Below, in pieces: positions 20,297-64,000 of a stretch of DNA of 64,000 bases (the stretch's first letter is position 1; every line of letters starts with the position of its first letter). Source of the stretch: a virus (lineage: Duplodnaviria; Caudoviricetes); the IMG/VR virus record IMGVR_UViG_3300027863_001680, positions 3,306 to 67,305 of that record; one strand, written 5' to 3'. The notes under the pieces were generated by a model. It searched no databases and was not told the DNA's origin. It was given only the letters and a program-made list of their open reading frames with translations. Both the position numbers and the translations under genes were made by a program.

Positions 20297-20329
20297 TTTC
20301 ACCACTCCGCATGTGTCTCCGGTAAATAT
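20297..20329 (+). promoter_or_regulatory. Putative late promoter, copy 2 (TTTCACCACT-N11-TCCGGTAAATAT)
   Basis: Conserved 33-bp motif upstream of the head operon. Confidence 0.65.
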
Positions 20330-20385
20330 TGGAGAGGCAGTTTCCAGGCTTACCTGGACGCCTCGACACCGGACCGGAGATACGG

Positions 20386-23300
20386 ATGGAACTCTTCGCC
20401 ACAGACCTTGAGCGGCTGGCATTCCTGCTGGAAACGGATGCTTCTTGCTACCTGGAAGACCTTGTCGCCCAGGGTACGGAACTCGTTACAGAAGAACTGC
20501 CGCCGGACGAACGTCCGAAGTACATTACCAACTATATCGGCTCGAAGCAGAAGCTGGTCGACTGGATATGGAAGCACACCCCCGAGGGTGTAAGCTCGGT
20601 CCTCGACGCGTTTTCCGGCTCGGCGGTCGTTGCATACATGTACAAGAGCAAAGGTATGCGTGTTGTTGCGAACGACCGAATGCATTACTGCCACCACGCC
20701 GCGCGTGCCATTATTGAGAATTCAAGCGTTCGGATCACCCAGGAAGAACTCGATGCGCTCCTTGCCGATAACCCCAAGGCAGGCACGTTCGTCCGGGATA
20801 ATTTCAAAGGCCTGTTCTTTTCGGAAGGCGTCCACAAGATAATTGATGTTATCCGGGCGAATGTCGATGCGCTCTCTGGCTGCAAGAAAGACATCGCCCT
20901 CTTTGCACTCGGCAAGACATGCATGTCCGGCAAGGGCGGTTTTGGCCACTTCTCCTCCTCAACCGACTACGGCAAGAGGCAGGACACACCAGAGGAGTTC
21001 AAGGAACGATTTGCCGACAATGTTGCACGCATAAACGCGCTCATCTTCGATAACGGCAAGGAATGCAAGGCATATCGGAAAGATATCAATGATATGCTGG
21101 CCGAGGTCAAAGTCGATCTCGCCTACTTCGACCCGCCTTATGCGACTGAGTTCTCAACTACCAACTACGAAAAATCCTACCACTTCGTCGAGGGTCTCAT
21201 GACATACTGGGACGGCCTTACGCTTGTCGGCGACTCGAAGACTCACCACTACGAGACTGACCACAAGACCGTCACCAAGGCGAATGCCAAGGAGTTCTTC
21301 TCGACATTTCTTTCGAGCGCCAAGCACATCCCGAACTGGCTCATCTCGTACCGGGACCATGCGTATCCGAACGAAGACGAGATGAAGGAGATCATATCGG
21401 CCAGCGGCATGTCCAGCCGAATGCAGTCTCAGCAGCATCACTACCACATCTCTTCTAGGCACTCGGAGAACTCTCAGGCGATGGAGCGGCTTTTCATCTG
21501 TTCGAAAGCGGGAGAGATGAAGCAGGCTGCGAGCCTGTGCCCGATGTGTTCGAAAATGCAGACACAGGCCGAGTGGGACGAGAGCGAAAACGAGATCCGC
21601 TATCGCGTGCGCGACCCCGAACAGTTCGAGCAGGAAAGCTTCAGGCACAAAGCCCTCGACGGCGTCGACGGTGTCTCCATCATCATCGGCAGGCTCAAGA
21701 AAGAGTTCACCCCAGAGGGTCATGACCCGAAAGCGATGGTCGTGCAGGCATATCGCTTTGCCAGAAAGACTGAACAAAACCCGGACGGCTGGACTCTTGA
21801 AAAGGCTCAGAAATGGATTGAGGAACACGAGCCTCAAGCTTCCGAAGCCGAAACCCGCATAGAGGAAAACATGTGGGCTCTCGCCGATGCCCCACTCTCG
21901 GACGAGATGGATTTGCTTTCCTGCCAGGCGGGAATGGACCCGGTGCGAGTTACCGGCTTCATGGGCAACAAATACATGATGCTTGGTTGGATAGAGCGGC
22001 AGGTGCCGAAGGAGGCGAAGACCCTCGTTGACGCGTTCTCCGGCGGAGCTAATGTTGCGTACCACTTCAAGCGCAAGGGCATGAAAGTGGTCGCGAACGA
22101 CCTGCTGCTCTATCCATATCACATTGCTCGGGCCGTTGTCGAGAACTCACACGAGGTTCTGACCGACGAAGACATCGAGAGGATTCTCGCGCCGAACTCG
22201 AACGCCGGCAGCTTCATTGTCGACAATTTCCACGGTTACTACTACACCAAGAAAGTGCTCGCGTGGCTTGACCAGGTGTGGGCGAATATCCAGAAGCTGC
22301 CCGGCTATAAGAAAGACCTCGCGCTCGCCGTGCTCGGAAACACCGTCAAGGCCAAGAGTCTCTACGGTCAGTTTCATCGCTCGAAGCTGAACCTGAAAGC
22401 CGACGCAAATATCGAGACCGATGCCGGTGTGAAGGAAAACCAGCTTGTGAACCTGCCGGTCTCCAGCCTGGTCGAGAGCTTCAAACGATATGCAAGCCAG
22501 ATCAACAAGCTGGTTTTCGACAACGGCCAGGAGTGCAAAGCATTTCACGGCGATGCTGTCGAGGCGGTGCGCAAGTTCGGCGGGGATGTGCTGTACCTTG
22601 ACCCACCTTATATCACCGAGTTTTCCAACAACGACTACGAATACTCGCTGCATTTTGTCGAGGGTCTCATGAACCGCTGGGCGGACAAGACGCTCCTCGA
22701 TGATAACCGACGCAGCTATAAGTCCCGCACGCACTATGACCGCGACAGCATCCGCTCGCTCATTGAGAACCTTGCGTCCGAGGCTCGCGGTAAGTATGGG
22801 ACAGTCATTATGTCCTACCGCGACCACGCATTCCCCACTGAAAAAGAGATACGCGACATTTTCGCAGAGCGGTTAGGCAACGTGCGCGTCAGAGGAATGG
22901 ACGTAGAGTACAACATAGTCCTTGGCAAGGAAGGCGGGGGCTCGAGCGGTCGCGAGTTGCTTTTCATCTCCTCGAAGTCCGAAAGCGCGCCGAAGTCGAC
23001 AGCGGCGGCACTGCCCGGAAACTGCCACACATCCATACCGGTCGAAGTGCGCCTTGAAGCATCGGCCCAGTTGTCGGCGTCGGCTATTGATATCAACCCT
23101 AACGCCGGCGACCCACAGTTCAGCTTCATCATGTGCCGGGCCGGGACCAACAAGAACGGTGATCACTTCACACCGGAAGAGCTCTCGACACGCTGCACAA
23201 CGGCGATCAACAAGAAGATAGACCTCAAGCACTCTCAGGACCTCACCGACATCGTGGGCGGGATCATTGCCGCCGAGTTTGTCGAGGACGAGACCGGCGG

Positions 23301-24234
23301 CAGGGTCGAGTGCGCGGGCGAACTATATGTGGCGGACACACCTACAGCCGCGCTTGCCCACAAACTCATGAAGAAGGGCGTCATCTCACAGGTCTCGATG
23401 GAGTGCGACTACGAAGCCGGCGAGTGTTCCATTTGCGGCAAGATGGTGACCAACAAGAACGATTACTGCATCCATCTTCGCAAGTTCAAAGGCGCGGAAT
23501 ACCAGGGCAAGCCGGTCTTCGAGATCCTGCACGGCGTTACGTTTACCGGGTTGGGTCTTCTCGACCGCAAAGGCGCCGACGAAAATGCGCGAATAACACA
23601 AGTCGCCTCGCAAGAGGCGAGGCAAACCGATCCCACAGACAAAGGAGGCAGCTCAGTGGAAGACGACAAGAAAGAGACCGACGAGCAGCGCGAAGAGGCT
23701 GCGAAGAAAAAGGACGCCCCGGGCGGCGGCGCTGCGCCTGCGGACGACAAGGCCCGCGTAAAGGAGCTTGAGGACGAGAACAAACAGCTCAAGCAGCAGG
23801 TGTTGGACCTCCAACAGCAGGTTCAGGAGCTTGAGGCGGCAAGTAAGGCCGCCGCAAACAAAGCACGGGCCGCGAAGCTCGTCGCCAAGATCGAGAAATC
23901 CGGAATGACTTTTGCCTCCGACGAGGAGCGTGAGAAGGAACTCGGGAGGCTTGTGGAGCTTTCAGATGATGCGTTCGCTGCAACCGAAGCCGCCTACGAG
24001 CGCGCCATGCAGGCCAAGTCCGCAAACTCCAAGACTGAGACATCGACGAAAGACTCTGAGGAAAAGCCCGACACAAAGGCGGCAGAGTCGAAGAGGCAGA
24101 TGCGCACCGATGCCGGTGTGCGGCCCCTGGATGTGGATGACACGAAGACGAGCCTTGAGGACAAGCTCAAGGATGGCTTCATGATCGCCTACCGCGAGCG
24201 TGTGGGTCTTGCGGATTCAGGCAAGAGCGACTAA
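20386..24234 (+). CDS. Fusion of two D12-class (Dam/FokI-like) adenine methyltransferases, a prohead protease and a scaffold coiled coil
   Basis: ATG at 20386 after GGAGA; NYIGSK/DAFSG/DPPY, then FMGNK/DAFSG/DPPY; protease-like DLKH, VSMEC, CSICG, FTGLGL; E/K/A-rich tail directly before the capsid genes. Confidence 0.82.
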   Translation: MELFATDLERLAFLLETDASCYLEDLVAQGTELVTEELPPDERPKYITNYIGSKQKLVDWIWKHTPEGVSSVLDAFSGSAVVAYMYKSKGMRVVANDRMHYCHHAARAIIENSSVRITQEELDALLADNPKAGTFVRDNFKGLFFSEGVHKIIDVIRANVDALSGCKKDIALFALGKTCMSGKGGFGHFSSSTDYGKRQDTPEEFKERFADNVARINALIFDNGKECKAYRKDINDMLAEVKVDLAYFDPPYATEFSTTNYEKSYHFVEGLMTYWDGLTLVGDSKTHHYETDHKTVTKANAKEFFSTFLSSAKHIPNWLISYRDHAYPNEDEMKEIISASGMSSRMQSQQHHYHISSRHSENSQAMERLFICSKAGEMKQAASLCPMCSKMQTQAEWDESENEIRYRVRDPEQFEQESFRHKALDGVDGVSIIIGRLKKEFTPEGHDPKAMVVQAYRFARKTEQNPDGWTLEKAQKWIEEHEPQASEAETRIEENMWALADAPLSDEMDLLSCQAGMDPVRVTGFMGNKYMMLGWIERQVPKEAKTLVDAFSGGANVAYHFKRKGMKVVANDLLLYPYHIARAVVENSHEVLTDEDIERILAPNSNAGSFIVDNFHGYYYTKKVLAWLDQVWANIQKLPGYKKDLALAVLGNTVKAKSLYGQFHRSKLNLKADANIETDAGVKENQLVNLPVSSLVESFKRYASQINKLVFDNGQECKAFHGDAVEAVRKFGGDVLYLDPPYITEFSNNDYEYSLHFVEGLMNRWADKTLLDDNRRSYKSRTHYDRDSIRSLIENLASEARGKYGTVIMSYRDHAFPTEKEIRDIFAERLGNVRVRGMDVEYNIVLGKEGGGSSGRELLFISSKSESAPKSTAAALPGNCHTSIPVEVRLEASAQLSASAIDINPNAGDPQFSFIMCRAGTNKNGDHFTPEELSTRCTTAINKKIDLKHSQDLTDIVGGIIAAEFVEDETGGRVECAGELYVADTPTAALAHKLMKKGVISQVSMECDYEAGECSICGKMVTNKNDYCIHLRKFKGAEYQGKPVFEILHGVTFTGLGLLDRKGADENARITQVASQEARQTDPTDKGGSSVEDDKKETDEQREEAAKKKDAPGGGAAPADDKARVKELEDENKQLKQQVLDLQQQVQELEAASKAAANKARAAKLVAKIEKSGMTFASDEEREKELGRLVELSDDAFAATEAAYERAMQAKSANSKTETSTKDSEEKPDTKAAESKRQMRTDAGVRPLDVDDTKTSLEDKLKDGFMIAYRERVGLADSGKSD

Positions 24235-54077: not shown

Positions 54078-54341
54078 GTGGATATATTCAAGATTATGGA
54101 TACGAAGCAAATGCAGCGCAGTGTAGGTAAGATCATACAGGCAAGGAGAAGCAAGCTCGGCTACAGCCAGGAGTCGTTTGCTGATGCAGTAGGTGTGCAT
54201 CGAACTTATATCGGCTCGGTCGAGCGCGGCGAGCGCAATGTCACGCTCAAGAACCTGCTACTTATCGCTGACGGCCTCAAGATGCCGCTCTCAACTCTGA
54301 TAGCCGCAGCCGAAGCGGAAGTGATGATCTCCGGTTCATAG
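54078..54341 (+). CDS. XRE-family HTH regulator (C-protein-like)
   Basis: YSQESFADAVGVHRTYIGSVERGERN. Confidence 0.92.
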   Translation: MDIFKIMDTKQMQRSVGKIIQARRSKLGYSQESFADAVGVHRTYIGSVERGERNVTLKNLLLIADGLKMPLSTLIAAAEAEVMISGS

Positions 54342-55424
54342 ATCGAGACCATCCGCGCTGTTCTCCTCAAACAGGCGACCGAGCCTGATATATCTCTTGA
54401 GCGTGGCGAGTGAGCGGTGCCCCGTCTGCTGTGCGATTATGTGCTCGACAACGCCTGCTCTGCTCGCTTGCGTGCAATGTCCGCTTCTAAGACTGTGACC
54501 GCTGTATCGTGATGGGTCTAGTCCCGCTGTTTCTGCAGCCCGCTTGATAATGTCCCCGACCGACCTTCTGGATAGCCGCTCCGACACAATGTTCCCGTGC
54601 CGGTCGAGCCCTCTAAAGATAGCGCATTCTGATATACCCGAACACTCCAGCCAGAAGCGAAGAGCGGTTACGGGGCATGTATCGGGATTCTTGCCGTGCG
54701 GGATGCCTACCCAGCGGCCCTCGCCTTTCTGGTCGGTTTTTGAGCGCCTCAAGAGAACTACCAGTCCCTCATCTCGATAGCTGATGTCTTCAACATTCAA
54801 TCCCACGATTTCCGAGCGGCGGAATGCGCCGGCGAAGCCCAGGAGGATGAGCGCTCTGTCTCGCGTGCCGATCAGGGTATCCGGCAGCGCTTCAGCCATG
54901 CACTTGATATCTTCGGATAGCAGTGCATCTACAGGCTTCGGCGGCGTGCCCAGCTTGCGTGTGATACCTCGGAGCAGTTCCCGAATCGCCGGATGGGTTG
55001 TAGGTGTCGGATAGCCCGATTCCCTGTGCGCTGCGGCTATAGCAGCGGAATGCCGGCGGATGGTGGTCACGCGAAAATCCCGCATTGCAAGGGACGTAAA
55101 GTAACAGGCAACTACCTCGGGGGAAGATGGCAAGTTCGGCAAACCAAGGTCATCACACCAGCGGCTGAAAGCCTGCCAGTCCCTGGAATAGACTTCGCGA
55201 GTGCTTTCCGCGACGGTTGTTGAGAGGAACTCCTGGGCGTTTGAGAGGATTTCAAGAAGCTCAGGAGATGCCCCCTCCATCACTTCCTGGAAGACACTAT
55301 TTCTGGAAGCCAGTGTAGCATGGCAATTAAGCATTTGCAAATATCCGTCGCATATCGGCGTCCTTGGATCCGGTTTGCGGAATACAAGGAGTCGCCGTGA
55401 CTGTGAAGCATAAACTGACATCAA
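54336..55424 (-). CDS. Cre-like tyrosine recombinase
   Basis: RDRALILLGFAGAFRRSE, SKTDQ, GHSLRSG, TGH, RY. Confidence 0.92.
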   Translation of the reverse strand: MMSVYASQSRRLLVFRKPDPRTPICDGYLQMLNCHATLASRNSVFQEVMEGASPELLEILSNAQEFLSTTVAESTREVYSRDWQAFSRWCDDLGLPNLPSSPEVVACYFTSLAMRDFRVTTIRRHSAAIAAAHRESGYPTPTTHPAIRELLRGITRKLGTPPKPVDALLSEDIKCMAEALPDTLIGTRDRALILLGFAGAFRRSEIVGLNVEDISYRDEGLVVLLRRSKTDQKGEGRWVGIPHGKNPDTCPVTALRFWLECSGISECAIFRGLDRHGNIVSERLSRRSVGDIIKRAAETAGLDPSRYSGHSLRSGHCTQASRAGVVEHIIAQQTGHRSLATLKRYIRLGRLFEENSADGLDL

Positions 55425-55591: not shown

Positions 55592-56482
55592 TTGAAGATG
55601 AGATCGGCAAGGCTTCTCGTTCGACTGCTGGTGCTTGTTCTCGTCCTTACCGTTCAGGTCGGGGCGGCAGATCTGACAGTGAGCATCATTGATGTTGGTC
55701 AGGGTGATTCCATCCTCGTCCAGTATCCCAATGGCGCGAACATGCTCGTAGACGCGGGAACATCAAGCGCCGGTAGAGCAGTGGTAAGTTATCTAAGGTC
55801 TCGCAAAGTCGCGGCACTGGACATCCTCGTTGCTACCCATCCTCACGAGGACCATATTGGAGGCATTAAGACAGTGCTAAACGTGTTCTCCGTCGGTAAG
55901 GTCTGGGACTCCGGTTGCAACCACGGTTCGCGGACTCAGGCGAACATGCTCTCTGCGATCAAGACGAAAGGCATCCGATTCGAGACTCCCAAAGCAGGGC
56001 TTACCGAGCGGATTGAAGACGTAAACGTATCAGTGCTTGCTCCGAAGGCTGAAGTTATGGACGATGCTAATAACAGCAGTCTGGTGCTGCTCATAGTCTA
56101 TGGCAAGACGAGCTTTCTACTGACGGGAGATTTGGGGGACTGCGAGCGGCAGTCCGTAGCAGTCTGGCCCGAGAGCACGGTGCTCAAAGTCCCTCATCAC
56201 GGGAGTAACAACGGCATTGATCTGGCTTTTCTTCAACAGGTGAAGCCAAAGATAGCAGTCATCTCGTGCGGCAAGGATAATTCCTACGGGCACCCGCACA
56301 AGTCGACGCTCGATACGCTGAAATCCGTTGGGGCATCCACATACATAACAGCCGAGTCAGGAACTATTGTGCTGACATCAGATGGAACAAGTGTCACGGT
56401 GAAGACCTTTGCAGGAGGTGCAGGCAATGAGGGCGTTCGTGGACAGATTCGAGGGAGATCAGGCAGTGCTGCTTCTCGGTGA
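55592..56482 (+). CDS. Secreted ComEC-like metallo-beta-lactamase-fold hydrolase
   Basis: Signal peptide; DVGQGD, THPHEDHIGG, NNSS, TGD, PHHGS. Confidence 0.9.
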   Translation: MKMRSARLLVRLLVLVLVLTVQVGAADLTVSIIDVGQGDSILVQYPNGANMLVDAGTSSAGRAVVSYLRSRKVAALDILVATHPHEDHIGGIKTVLNVFSVGKVWDSGCNHGSRTQANMLSAIKTKGIRFETPKAGLTERIEDVNVSVLAPKAEVMDDANNSSLVLLIVYGKTSFLLTGDLGDCERQSVAVWPESTVLKVPHHGSNNGIDLAFLQQVKPKIAVISCGKDNSYGHPHKSTLDTLKSVGASTYITAESGTIVLTSDGTSVTVKTFAGGAGNEGVRGQIRGRSGSAASR

Positions 56483-61367: not shown

Positions 61368-63869
61368 ATGCTGGAACCGAAAGATGTTTTCAATGACCCC
61401 GCTAGGCATTGGGCGTTTCTTACGGAAAGAACAGACGCCTTGTTTGAGGGACAGTATTTCGACCGCAAGGAAGTTCCAGGTTACGACAACACCGGGATCA
61501 GCAGGAGCCAGTTAAGTAACATAAGAGACCAGATAAAGGAATGTATATCGGCTTTTGCCAACGCCAATCATCTTGGTGGTCTGCTGGTATTAGGTGTCTC
61601 AAAAGTCGGAGAAGCGACGGGAATCAGTCACCTTACCGATGAACAGAGAACTAGCTTAATGAGCTTCGACAACATGCTCGTAAATCAAGCCGCGCAAGCC
61701 AAGGAATACGACCACGTTAAGGAGGATGGTACTACCTGCAAAATATGTCTAATCTACACCCCCTATACCGAATCGGCGGTATGTAATCTCATCGGTGCTG
61801 AGGAAAAGGCGTTCGTCAGACAGGGTGCCCAGAATATTCCGGTCACACAAGTACGGCGCGAACAACTCATTTACGAGAAGGGTATTCGCAGCTTTGAGCA
61901 AGGCGCCTGCTGCCTCTACGATCCACAGAGTTTGGAAAGAAGCGTCGTGGATGAGTTCCGCAAGGTGTTCCTTGCAGACGTTGCAGGCGATTACAGTGAT
62001 GAGGAGTTGCTGTATCAGGCAGGGGCCCTGGTCAAGCAAAATGACGATTATCATTTCACGAACGCTGGTTTCTTATTCTTCGCGGCCAATCCACAGCGGA
62101 TGTTTGCACTAGCCTATGTCAGACTTTTGAGGTATGAATCAGATTTGGAAGGCGGGCAGAGAGTTGGCTCGGATACGTTGGACAAGGAGTTCACTGGACC
62201 CCTTACTACCCAAATTCGCAATATCCGTACATTCTTTCAGCAATCTGGCTTCTTCAAGACGTACCGAAAGCGAAACCCAGAAGGAGGGTTCACAGAGGAA
62301 CCCGAATATCCTTTGGTTGCGGTAGATGAGGCAATTGTTAACGCTGTTGTCCACCGCGATTACTCAATGAACAATCCCGTGATCTGCGAACGGTTCCACA
62401 ACGCTCTAATTGTGCGCAATCCAGGTCGCTTACTGCAACAAGAACGTGATGTGCCATCAGAGTTTTCGCTGGACGCATACCTCTTGAATTCTGTTCCACG
62501 CAATCCAAGACTTATGCAATGGCTGAAACTGATGCGAGATGAGCGCGGTAATGCATTCGTCAGACAGTTAAGCGAAGGCACTAAGCGTATGTGCCAAGAG
62601 ATGGCTCAACTGGGACTACCAGCCCCAAAATACGACGTTGATGGAGTGAGCACCGCAGTAACGCTTTTCAGTAATGCTCTGCAGCGTGAGGCGCTTCTTC
62701 AGGCAGGCGCAGAATTAGAGGTTTCGGAATTTGCGAACCTGTTTCCACTAACAATAACTGCCAGTAGCGGAGCAGTCCGTAACTCAATGGATGCAAGCTT
62801 CGAGCGTCGTGCTATCATGGATTGTCTGGAGAATGCTCTGCGAAGCCACAAGTGGTTTATTCATCGGAACACTTATGGTCGGTTGGTAGCACACCCCAAA
62901 GCAAGTGAGGTGGTCCTGCCACAACCAGTTCGTCAGTTGGTGAGACTGTTCCCATCTTACGTTTTTCAGGTAAGGTCATATTTTGGGAGGCTTTTCCTTG
63001 TAGTCGACTACACACTTGAGGTGCACAATGCTGCCACTGCTCAGTACTTACAGAGCATTCCTGGGCTGGAATCATTGGTAGGAAGAACTGCTTTGGCCAG
63101 ATGCAGCGGTAAATCGGAGCGAGTCAGAATCCTATCGCTCGATTCACAATGGGCTAAAGTCTACCTGTTTGGATCTGAATCAGAAGTGCAAGTTCCTAGT
63201 TCCGAAGTGTGGCCAGACATTCCAAAGAGTTGGATTGCCCACGTATTGCGGCATGGAGGGGTTAAGTTCGATTTGGACGCTGCTATTAAGCTCAATAGTC
63301 TGGCTTCACAGCAGAATGCAGCCCGTACACGGGCAGAACGGGTTCAAGCCACTGTGGTTCGACTTGTCAGCGACGTGTTTCCTCTGACAGTTCTTGATAC
63401 ACGAGTTGGCCTGCAGTCACAACCCTTGCCACTTGCCAGGCTCGCGAATGGCGGTGGACCACTCACACTACATAGTCTACCGGAACCTGCGGTCGAGTTT
63501 AAGCAACGGCACGAGAGCGACAACATACGCAACGGTATCACCTCTTTCGGGTCCTATGACAACGAACCCAGAACAGTAGAATTGGTGCCGATCTGCCCTG
63601 ATGGAATGCGCGACGAAATGGCTGCTCTGATTGATCGGCTGAAGGTTGGCAAGTACAAGTATCGTGGAGCAGAGCGCACATTTGCAGTAAGGCTGGCATA
63701 CCAGTCTATTATCACAGCTCGTTCAGATAATGAAATACTTGCTGAGTGCCAACGTCTGCTGAAAGAACATCCAGAATGGGGCAAAGCCGAACGTTTAGAT
63801 CGCCTGTTTCTTGTATGCACGCCAGAACAAGGCCATGAAAGCGAGATAGAGTCTTGTCAAGTGGTGTAA
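61368..63869 (+). CDS. Schlafen/AlbA_2 + HATPase_c_4 (GHKL) + long Argonaute-like N/L1/PAZ/L2/partial MID fusion, truncated by an IS
   Basis: EGQYFDRKE, SAFANA..GGLLVLGV; EAIVNAVVHRDY, RNP, EGT; then NLFPL, LPEPAVEF, GITSFGSY, LFLVCTP; last codons come from the IS end. Confidence 0.7.
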   Translation: MLEPKDVFNDPARHWAFLTERTDALFEGQYFDRKEVPGYDNTGISRSQLSNIRDQIKECISAFANANHLGGLLVLGVSKVGEATGISHLTDEQRTSLMSFDNMLVNQAAQAKEYDHVKEDGTTCKICLIYTPYTESAVCNLIGAEEKAFVRQGAQNIPVTQVRREQLIYEKGIRSFEQGACCLYDPQSLERSVVDEFRKVFLADVAGDYSDEELLYQAGALVKQNDDYHFTNAGFLFFAANPQRMFALAYVRLLRYESDLEGGQRVGSDTLDKEFTGPLTTQIRNIRTFFQQSGFFKTYRKRNPEGGFTEEPEYPLVAVDEAIVNAVVHRDYSMNNPVICERFHNALIVRNPGRLLQQERDVPSEFSLDAYLLNSVPRNPRLMQWLKLMRDERGNAFVRQLSEGTKRMCQEMAQLGLPAPKYDVDGVSTAVTLFSNALQREALLQAGAELEVSEFANLFPLTITASSGAVRNSMDASFERRAIMDCLENALRSHKWFIHRNTYGRLVAHPKASEVVLPQPVRQLVRLFPSYVFQVRSYFGRLFLVVDYTLEVHNAATAQYLQSIPGLESLVGRTALARCSGKSERVRILSLDSQWAKVYLFGSESEVQVPSSEVWPDIPKSWIAHVLRHGGVKFDLDAAIKLNSLASQQNAARTRAERVQATVVRLVSDVFPLTVLDTRVGLQSQPLPLARLANGGGPLTLHSLPEPAVEFKQRHESDNIRNGITSFGSYDNEPRTVELVPICPDGMRDEMAALIDRLKVGKYKYRGAERTFAVRLAYQSIITARSDNEILAECQRLLKEHPEWGKAERLDRLFLVCTPEQGHESEIESCQVV

Positions 63870-64000
63870 AATCCCGCGGACTCCTGTTGGTCTTCTACGC
63901 TATGAACTTACCGCTGACCGGCGCCAGAGCATCCGTGGCGACTTCGCTAAGGCTGCCCAACGACATATAGCGCCGTTCAGTAAGCCATTCCTCGTCCTGC
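63849..64000 (-). mobile_element. IS256-family insertion sequence (terminal repeat and transposase 3' end), partial
   Basis: End GAGTCTTGTCAAGTGGTGTAAAAT; minus-strand frame QDEEWLTERRYMS to stop at 63895 matches the mutator-family C-terminus. Confidence 0.8.

Follow-up and report, generated by a model that had tools for sequence, protein, structure and literature searches.

We analyzed a 64,000-nucleotide stretch of DNA (here called the window), which is the right-hand 64 kb of the 67,305-bp IMG/VR record IMGVR_UViG_3300027863_001680 and ends where the contig ends. An open reading frame (ORF) of 833 amino acids (aa) runs from 61368 to 63869 on the plus strand (P0001), exactly as originally predicted, and its stop codon lies 131 nt before the contig end. 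We concluded that this ORF very probably represents the beginning of a Schlafen-prokaryotic Argonaute (SLFN-pAgo) gene, encoding a Schlafen RNase, a GHKL ATPase, and an inactive Argonaute of the long-B type, that was split by an IS256-family insertion sequence (IS) within the MID-coding region at 63844/63845 and was most likely inactivated recently. The share of the original gene inside the window is limited to 61368..63844; we recovered the remainder from a second contig.

In 2018, Ryazansky et al. (PMC6299218) drew attention to long-B pAgos with a fused Schlafen domain. "SLFN-pAgos" were then defined in a May 2026 preprint by Kuzmenko et al. (bioRxiv 10.64898/2026.05.29.728809) as proteins of 1071 to 1187 aa that fall within the long-B clade and are enriched in Cyanobacteria and Bacteroidota. 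The same preprint, which analyzed 78 such proteins, characterized one of them, RzAgo (WP_028663822.1). The statement in the original prediction that no functional characterization of such fusions was known is therefore out of date.

The ORF begins as an SLFN-pAgo and ends inside MID

The original prediction placed AlbA_2 and HATPase_c_4 motifs in the first ~440 aa. Both were recovered above the Pfam cutoffs, SLFN_AlbA_2 (PF04326) at residues 49-159 (34.2 bits; cutoff, 25.3) and HATPase_c_4 (PF13749) at residues 339-433 (32.3 bits; cutoff, 26). When the protein is aligned with eight full-length relatives, the Schlafen nuclease motif E27-x4-D32-x-K34 (61446-61469) and the SAFAN box (residues 61-65; 61548-61562) are invariant. 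D32 and K34 align with D32 and K34 of RzAgo, and the Mg/gamma-phosphate residues E321 (62328-62330) and N325 (62340-62342) align with RzAgo E314 and N318.

Positions 1-826 of the PADLOC pAgo model PDLC02394 (1121 positions) match residues 1-826 of the protein with a score of 1046 bits. Since the match stops at 826 of 1121, the 833-aa protein is ~295 positions short of the family length. A second PADLOC model, PDLC02436, which describes a 460-aa short-type pAgo, matches with its positions 7-131 at residues 701-820. In the eight-relative alignment, family homology ends at ...TPEQGHES (residue 825/826), and the relatives continue with DDExSPYYxIKR...CQ... and ~290 residues. As it stands, the ORF ends inside MID and does not hold an Argonaute core in one chain of 1071 to 1187 aa. 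The full core is present only in the pre-insertion gene (see below), and we therefore regard the window gene as a disrupted member of the SLFN-pAgo family.

The residues after the ATPase domain have an Argonaute fold

When the 833-aa ORF was compared with the PDB by sequence, no Argonaute was returned and the sole match was a weak one of the GHKL region to 3lmm; solved Argonautes (RsAgo, CpAgo, and the SPARTA pAgos) were matched in sequence solely by positions 822-1121 of the family profile. Because the ORF matches no solved Argonaute by sequence, we folded residues 440-829 as a model, using AlphaFold with a 38-sequence alignment (mean predicted local distance difference test score [pLDDT], 80.9). 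The top 50 matches listed by Foldseek for this model were all Argonautes (E values down to 5e-10; probability, 1.00), and the top listed matches include KmAgo, RsAgo, PIWI-clade proteins, MpAgo, CbAgo, and hAgo2. VIA-align placed model residues 11-385 (protein residues 450-824) onto residues 19-455 of RsAgo with a Z score of 12.4 and 345 residues aligned. The mapped stretch ends just before the 5′-phosphate pocket of RsAgo, with model residue 385 corresponding to RsAgo residue 455.

These fold matches and the PDLC02394 score confirm, far beyond chance, that residues ~450-825 are Argonaute, as the original prediction had proposed from a series of motifs. All of these motifs are present: NLFPL (457-461), LFLVVDY (542-548), LPEPAVEF (704-711), GITSFGSY (723-730), VELVPICP (737-744), and LFLVCTP (813-819). 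Of the N-L1-PAZ-L2-MID order proposed from them, the Argonaute identity and the first half of MID stand; the N domain is doubtful, going by RzAgo, in which a canonical N domain is absent. Our label L1-PAZ-L2 for the N-lobe is given by analogy with the description of RzAgo by cryo-electron microscopy (cryo-EM). Over residues 450-700, long Agos and N-L1-L2/APAZ proteins both superpose on the model (Z scores of 11-13, root mean square deviation [rmsd] of 3-4 Å, and 140-211 residues), and within this 250-residue modeled N-lobe the fold search cannot separate N from PAZ, that is, N-L1-L2 from L1-PAZ-L2.

Our initial hypothesis, drawn from the PADLOC match at residue 701, took the Argonaute part for a fusion of a short pAgo with APAZ (N-L1-L2), like SIR2-APAZ-pAgo fusions, and not for a long pAgo with PAZ. 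The GHKL domain and MID are just ~250 residues apart, the 460-aa short-type model aligns from residue 701 and has the second-best score on the recovered remainder of the gene (208.8 bits), and AfAgo-N, SiAga1, and the APAZ domains of SPARTA and SPARDA superpose on model residues 11-255 (Z scores of 11-12; rmsd, 3-4 Å). However, long Agos align over ~190-211 residues of the same range, compared with 141-176 for the APAZ proteins, and among solved structures the long-B RsAgo is the best sequence relative of the MID-PIWI half. Moreover, the published phylogeny nests the clade in long-B, and the cryo-EM structure of RzAgo has an L1+PAZ lobe without N (bioRxiv 10.64898/2026.05.29.728809). We set the APAZ fusion aside on the basis of the RzAgo preprint and the RsAgo relative; it is improbable, and we retain the assignment to the long-B pAgos.

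An IS256-family element terminates the ORF

The 833-aa ORF ends in 7 codons and a stop codon that come from the inverted repeat of an IS and not from Argonaute. The first IS base completes codon 826, after which come I-E-S-C-Q-V-V and a TAA stop. The contig ends 156 nt inside this element. Six contigs from independent assemblies (ENA, JGI, and Logan; up to 206 kb) encode an identical 833-aa protein, and all of them end 4-131 nt past the stop codon. Because six independent assemblies all break just past the stop codon, we recognized the signature of a multicopy repeat.

At the window end, a C-terminal fragment of 34 codons is open on the minus strand, ending at 63895. The 34-aa fragment had no Pfam match. 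An exhaustive search with it retrieved P0122, a protein of 55 aa whose C terminus is Transposase_mut-like, and a two-sequence profile of the fragment and P0122 retrieved proteins of 403 aa that carry PF00872 (Transposase, Mutator family) along with PF10551 and of which some are named IS256-family transposase. The C termini of two 403-aa proteins, P0125 and P0126, equal the 34 residues of the window exactly, and over 153 nt the window tail shows 100% identity with the contig that encodes P0125 (L008). At L008:1-199, the IS256-family copy sits within an IS3-type (rve) transposase gene, a nested IS.

The left inverted repeat (IRL) is GATAGAGTATCAGAGTGTGGTGTAAATTACCG, and the right inverted repeat (IRR), read in the window from 63845, is GATAGAGTCTTGTCAAGTGGTGTAAAATCCCG; the two are identical at 23 of 32 positions, and both begin GATAGAGT. 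We then determined k-mer depth in public hot-spring metagenome runs, in two of which the window DNA is almost complete; no RNA run was among the public runs listed for this DNA. Depth at 63845 rises from 11.6 to ~350-800 in run X1 and from 6 to ~290-590 in run X3, a step of ~30-50-fold. Contigs with other flanks join at 63843-63845, and one contig of 1359 nt starts exactly at 63845. One scan of metagenomes with the IRL tip gave 17 matches, nearly all of them ~90-125 nt from a contig end; these IS copies have differing flanks and come from at least four metagenome data sets, as judged by contig-name prefix. The IS tail was not found in the window's own record, in IMG/VR (exact 40-mer), or in plasmids (blastn). 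From the transposase, the inverted repeats, the depth jump, and the alternative flanks, we concluded that the element is a mobile, multicopy IS256-family IS of ~1.36 kb. Like other IS256-family elements, it has a single Mutator-type (PF00872) DDE transposase of ~400 aa, imperfect inverted repeats, an 8-bp target-site duplication (8-9 bp in the family), and many copies; it differs in being an unnamed environmental member.

The other half of the gene abuts the opposite end of the IS

A 23.9-kb contig (L019; Ga0123519_10004058) from the same hot-spring sample as the pAgo contig L004 encodes family residues 825-1121 (69.6% identity; E value, 3e-134), directly abutting the IRL tip. Its frame is uninterrupted for 296 codons of MID-PIWI and open to the family C terminus, ...TPWFI and stop. 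This half matches positions 825-1120/1121 of PDLC02394 (564 bits) and clears the Pfam Piwi threshold. The MID-PIWI sequence that the original prediction sought beyond the IS is thus present and intact. Contig Ga0123519_10004058 bears the IS at both ends (L012 and L019).

A second copy of the 8-bp sequence GAAAGCGA lies at L019 12375-12368 (minus strand), right after the IS tip. At the window junction the sequence is ...CAT GAAAGCGA / IS, and at the L019 junction it is IS / GAAAGCGA TGACGAG.... Without the IS and with a single copy of the duplicated 8 bp, the sequence reads ...GHES-DDENSPYFTVKRLLLENGMPCQ..., in frame. We concluded that the pre-insertion gene was 1122 aa long and consisted of the window part and the L019 remainder at 12367-11479 on the minus strand. 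The duplication, the continuity of the frame, and the shared sample suggest that the two halves are joined through one IS copy. The proposal that an IS cuts the gene was correct: both junctions, the duplication, and the IS256-family transposase agree with it. The insertion looks recent, because there is no other lesion in either half. The coordinates of these and other features are listed in Table 1.

Table 1. Positions of the features described in the text
Feature	Coordinates	Strand	Evidence
5′ part of SLFN-pAgo gene, codons 1-825 and 2 nt	61368..63844	+	ORF, PDLC02394, homologues, RzAgo colinearity
Schlafen (AlbA_2) nuclease domain	61368..61844	+	Pfam PF04326, invariant motifs, RzAgo alignment
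Linker and GHKL (Bergerat-fold) ATPase	61845..62687	+	Pfam PF13749, RzAgo alignment
Argonaute N-lobe, residues 450-700	62715..63467	+	AlphaFold model, Foldseek, VIA-align
MID N-terminal half, residues 701-825, beta1-alpha1-beta2-alpha2-beta3	63468..63844	+	PDLC02436 match, model secondary structure
Left copy of 8-bp target-site duplication GAAAGCGA	63837..63844	.	Repeated after other IS tip
IS-encoded ORF tail	63845..63869	+	Equals IS inverted repeat; homology to relatives ends at 825/826
IS256-family IS right end (~1.36-kb element)	63845..64000	-	Transposase C terminus, L008 identity, depth jump
IS terminal inverted repeat	63845-63876		
Transposase, last 34 codons and stop	63999-63895	-	
Tyrosine integrase, right end of prophage	54336..55424	-	Pfam Phage_integrase

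The recovered half has a guide pocket and an inactive PIWI domain

The best solved sequence relative of the recovered half is the long-B RsAgo (E value, 2e-11). The Y-K-Q 5′-phosphate pocket of RsAgo is kept, at Y832, K836, and Q847 in the numbering of the reconstructed protein. Y832 and Y1097 correspond to RzAgo Y828 and Y1086, and the guide pocket has no counterpart in the window ORF; the break in MID falls just ahead of the helix that bears the Y-K 5′-end-binding residues.

Compared with the nuclease-type CpAgo, the recovered half has FVGLS versus FVGLD, HYSA at the H-R-(D/A)-G position, and FAHD versus YADK. The DEDX tetrad, which the original prediction proposed to check in this half, is absent, and S/S/H occupies the positions of the catalytic D/D/D-or-H. 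Because both catalytic aspartates are serines, PIWI is inactive, and with the tetrad absent we regard it as a sensor and not a nuclease. The long-B character rests on the missing tetrad, RsAgo as the best solved relative, and the published phylogeny.

Proposed function of the intact protein

The function of the intact protein can be proposed from RzAgo. Kuzmenko et al. (bioRxiv 10.64898/2026.05.29.728809) reported that RzAgo uses RNA guides and DNA targets and that its core, seen by cryo-EM, is L1-PAZ-L2-MID-PIWI without a canonical N domain. Guide loading drives RzAgo into inactive helical filaments, and target DNA licenses D32-dependent cleavage of tRNA by paired Schlafen domains; activation requires binding of both guide and target. 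The D32A mutation abolishes tRNA cleavage, whereas D72A is hyperactivating and not inactivating. RzAgo guards Flavobacterium johnsoniae against phages, and the D32A and E314A mutants are defective.

By homology, the intact 1122-aa protein would load a small RNA guide in its MID pocket and, once loaded, would polymerize into inactive filaments. Pairing with complementary invader DNA would switch it to ATP-dependent tetramers, in which paired Schlafen domains would cleave tRNA and abort infection. The type of guide and target, the tRNA cleavage, and the oligomeric control are all expected here by analogy with RzAgo. The original prediction, a single-chain system in which guide-target recognition activates a Schlafen nuclease, is supported through this colinear homologue (bioRxiv 10.64898/2026.05.29.728809). 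The activation idea is right, yet it has already been demonstrated for the homologue, and the window copy is disrupted.

Several points weigh against our interpretation. Identity to RzAgo is only ~40%, and the mechanism proposed here leans on a homologue. The active-site details may also differ, because the third acidic pocket residue of RzAgo, D72, corresponds to K79 (61602-61604) in the window protein. Lastly, the halves lie on different contigs, and their probable linkage is deduced from the duplication, the frame, and the shared sample.

Close relatives have K or T at the D72 position, and K/T there is natural across a mainly cyanobacterial subclade. The clade of the window protein naturally carries K where D72A renders RzAgo hyperactive. 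At position 27, the window protein has E and RzAgo has H.

The truncated product is probably functionless

The 833-aa product, in which the nuclease, the ATPase, and the N-lobe of Argonaute are retained, is without the 5′-end pocket and the whole of PIWI. With these parts missing, the system in its present form is unable to bind a guide, the product cannot sense a target in a guide-dependent way, and we infer that the product is functionless. The present gene is most likely a recently inactivated defense gene.

The IS-split gene might instead still work, with the 833-aa protein as a guide-independent or differently regulated RNase, with reassembly of that protein and the C-terminal MID-PIWI piece, or with the IS as a reversible switch. 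IS256 can excise precisely and drives phase variation in staphylococci. Both pieces of the gene keep open frames with no further lesions, and the C-terminal piece is a 288-aa ORF with a GTG start at L019:12342-11476, a candidate for expression from the IS end. Stand-alone Schlatpase proteins are common, with partial matches that cover only residues 1-442, and natural split Argonautes exist, e.g., AfAgo-N with AfAgo (PDB 8ok9). However, the break is not at a domain border but inside the Rossmann-like fold of MID, between beta3 and the Y-K helix, and activation of RzAgo needs guide and target. In addition, an allele without the interruption is missing from the assemblies of every sample, and none of the contigs branches off into pAgo sequence past 63844. 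We consider continued function of the split gene very improbable. Taken by itself, the idea that precise excision restores the SLFN-pAgo in a subpopulation, or that the truncated protein is freed from filament inhibition and acts as a guide-independent RNase, is a long shot.

The uninterrupted allele was not found in the protein collection, where the best nonself match is 50% identical, nor was it seen in the contigs of four public runs. Contigs drop rare variants, so a rare uninterrupted allele may exist alongside the inactivated gene.

The SLFN-pAgo family and related systems

A search of 5.8 billion proteins returned at least 957 relatives, counted as clusters at 90% identity. Nearly all are 1115-1130 aa long and ~45-50% identical over the whole query; many are from Cyanobacteria, and some have a Pfam Piwi match and are called "Protein argonaute" in UniRef. 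When the family alignment was used to scan species-representative genomes, 92 loci were identified, one of them in Runella zeae DSM 19591 (L081). The family is hence far larger than the 78 proteins analyzed previously. An exact 35-mer from the 5′ part of the pAgo gene had no match in the species-representative genomes.

The window protein aligns with L081 over residues 1-823 (35% identity; E value, 2e-157 by tblastn). The L081 ORF is 1111 aa, and the joined halves are 39.7% identical to it over 1094 aligned positions. The reconstructed protein resembles RzAgo in size (1122 versus 1111 aa) and in the order of its parts, SLFN/AlbA_2, GHKL ATPase, Argonaute N-lobe, MID, and inactive PIWI. RzAgo residues D32, K34, E314, N318, Y828, and Y1086 are identical here, at D32, K34, E321, N325, Y832, and Y1097. 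The window copy differs in its overall sequence (~40% identity) and in being split by an IS256-family element, its ORF lacking the guide pocket and PIWI.

RsAgo, a long-B pAgo of Rhodobacter sphaeroides (PDB 5awh and 6d8a), likewise has the Y-K-Q pocket and lacks the catalytic tetrad, and its residues 19-455 match the N-lobe and MID part of the window protein. Unlike the window protein, RsAgo has a canonical N domain and no Schlafen or GHKL domain, and it uses separate effectors or target binding with no fused RNase. In the short pAgo systems SPARTA, SPARSA, SPARDA, and SPARHA, as is proposed here, an inactive PIWI serves as a sensor that depends on a guide, turns on an unrelated effector, and aborts infection, and their APAZ domains superpose on the window N-lobe. 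In contrast, their effectors are TIR, SIR2, DREN, or HNH and not a Schlafen RNase, they have no GHKL ATPase, and their activation builds oligomers or filaments, whereas the filament of RzAgo is the inactive state.

Beyond annotation, the window gene carries little weight, since the architecture was noted in 2018 (PMC6299218) and the mechanism was solved for RzAgo in 2026. It is a divergent, IS-inactivated member of a characterized family and a fully resolved natural knockout of an SLFN-pAgo by an IS256-type element. With both junctions defined, it can be reconstructed as a divergent member from a hot spring for comparison with RzAgo.

Two further observations concern relatives. A full-length SLFN-pAgo relative, 44% identical over residues 3-828, is encoded on a 4.7-kb contig labeled as a metagenome-assembled genome of Nitrososphaera sp., an ammonia-oxidizing archaeon (L041; DATLXY010000317.1). 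The sole archaeal SLFN-pAgo of the 2026 preprint is from Heimdallarchaeota (bioRxiv 10.64898/2026.05.29.728809), and the archaeal binning of L041 may be wrong because the contig is short. At other loci (L083, L088-L092, L096, L099, L101, L104, and L107), matches cover only residues 1 to ~440 (43-53% identity). The Schlafen-GHKL module occurs without Argonaute in many genomes, especially of Poribacteria and Thermodesulfobacteriota, in agreement with the module exchange described in the preprint.

Genomic context

Most of the window is a prophage of the myovirus type, with tail sheath, tape measure, and baseplate J genes; the sheath, tape measure, and baseplate genes lie left of the integrase. 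To its right are genes for a metallo-beta-lactamase-fold protein, a DUF3006 protein, two proteins without a family, and a PD40 beta-propeller protein, followed by the pAgo gene. No tRNA gene was found in the window, and no att sites were identified. In L019, a 658-aa GmrSD-type protein is encoded directly downstream of the pAgo remainder and in the same direction (L019:9300-11276, minus strand; Pfam GmrSD_N, 104.5 bits; PADLOC HEC-05, 165 bits). It is followed by ordinary host genes, for a periplasmic binding protein and a B12/radical-SAM enzyme. With the GmrSD-type gene, the integrase, and host genes near its pieces, the pAgo gene most likely sits next to the prophage, in a small defense islet on the host chromosome. 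SLFN-pAgo genes are often near integrases and defense genes, without a conserved partner (bioRxiv 10.64898/2026.05.29.728809), and the window gene resembles the RzAgo family in having an integrase and other defense genes nearby.

The metallo-beta-lactamase-fold gene (55592-56482, plus strand) adjoins the integrase, with the DUF3006 gene next to it. Its product has PADLOC matches to metallo-beta-lactamase components of defense systems (LmuA, 3e-20; RTasMBL; and PDC-M48B) and a faint precomputed match to Anti-Pycsar Apyc1, and the gene could be a defense or an anti-defense gene. Just upstream of the prophage tail cluster is an ORF for a 1301-aa methyltransferase, which matches a PHROG DNA methyltransferase very strongly (20329-24234, plus strand; phrog_27806, 1331 bits).

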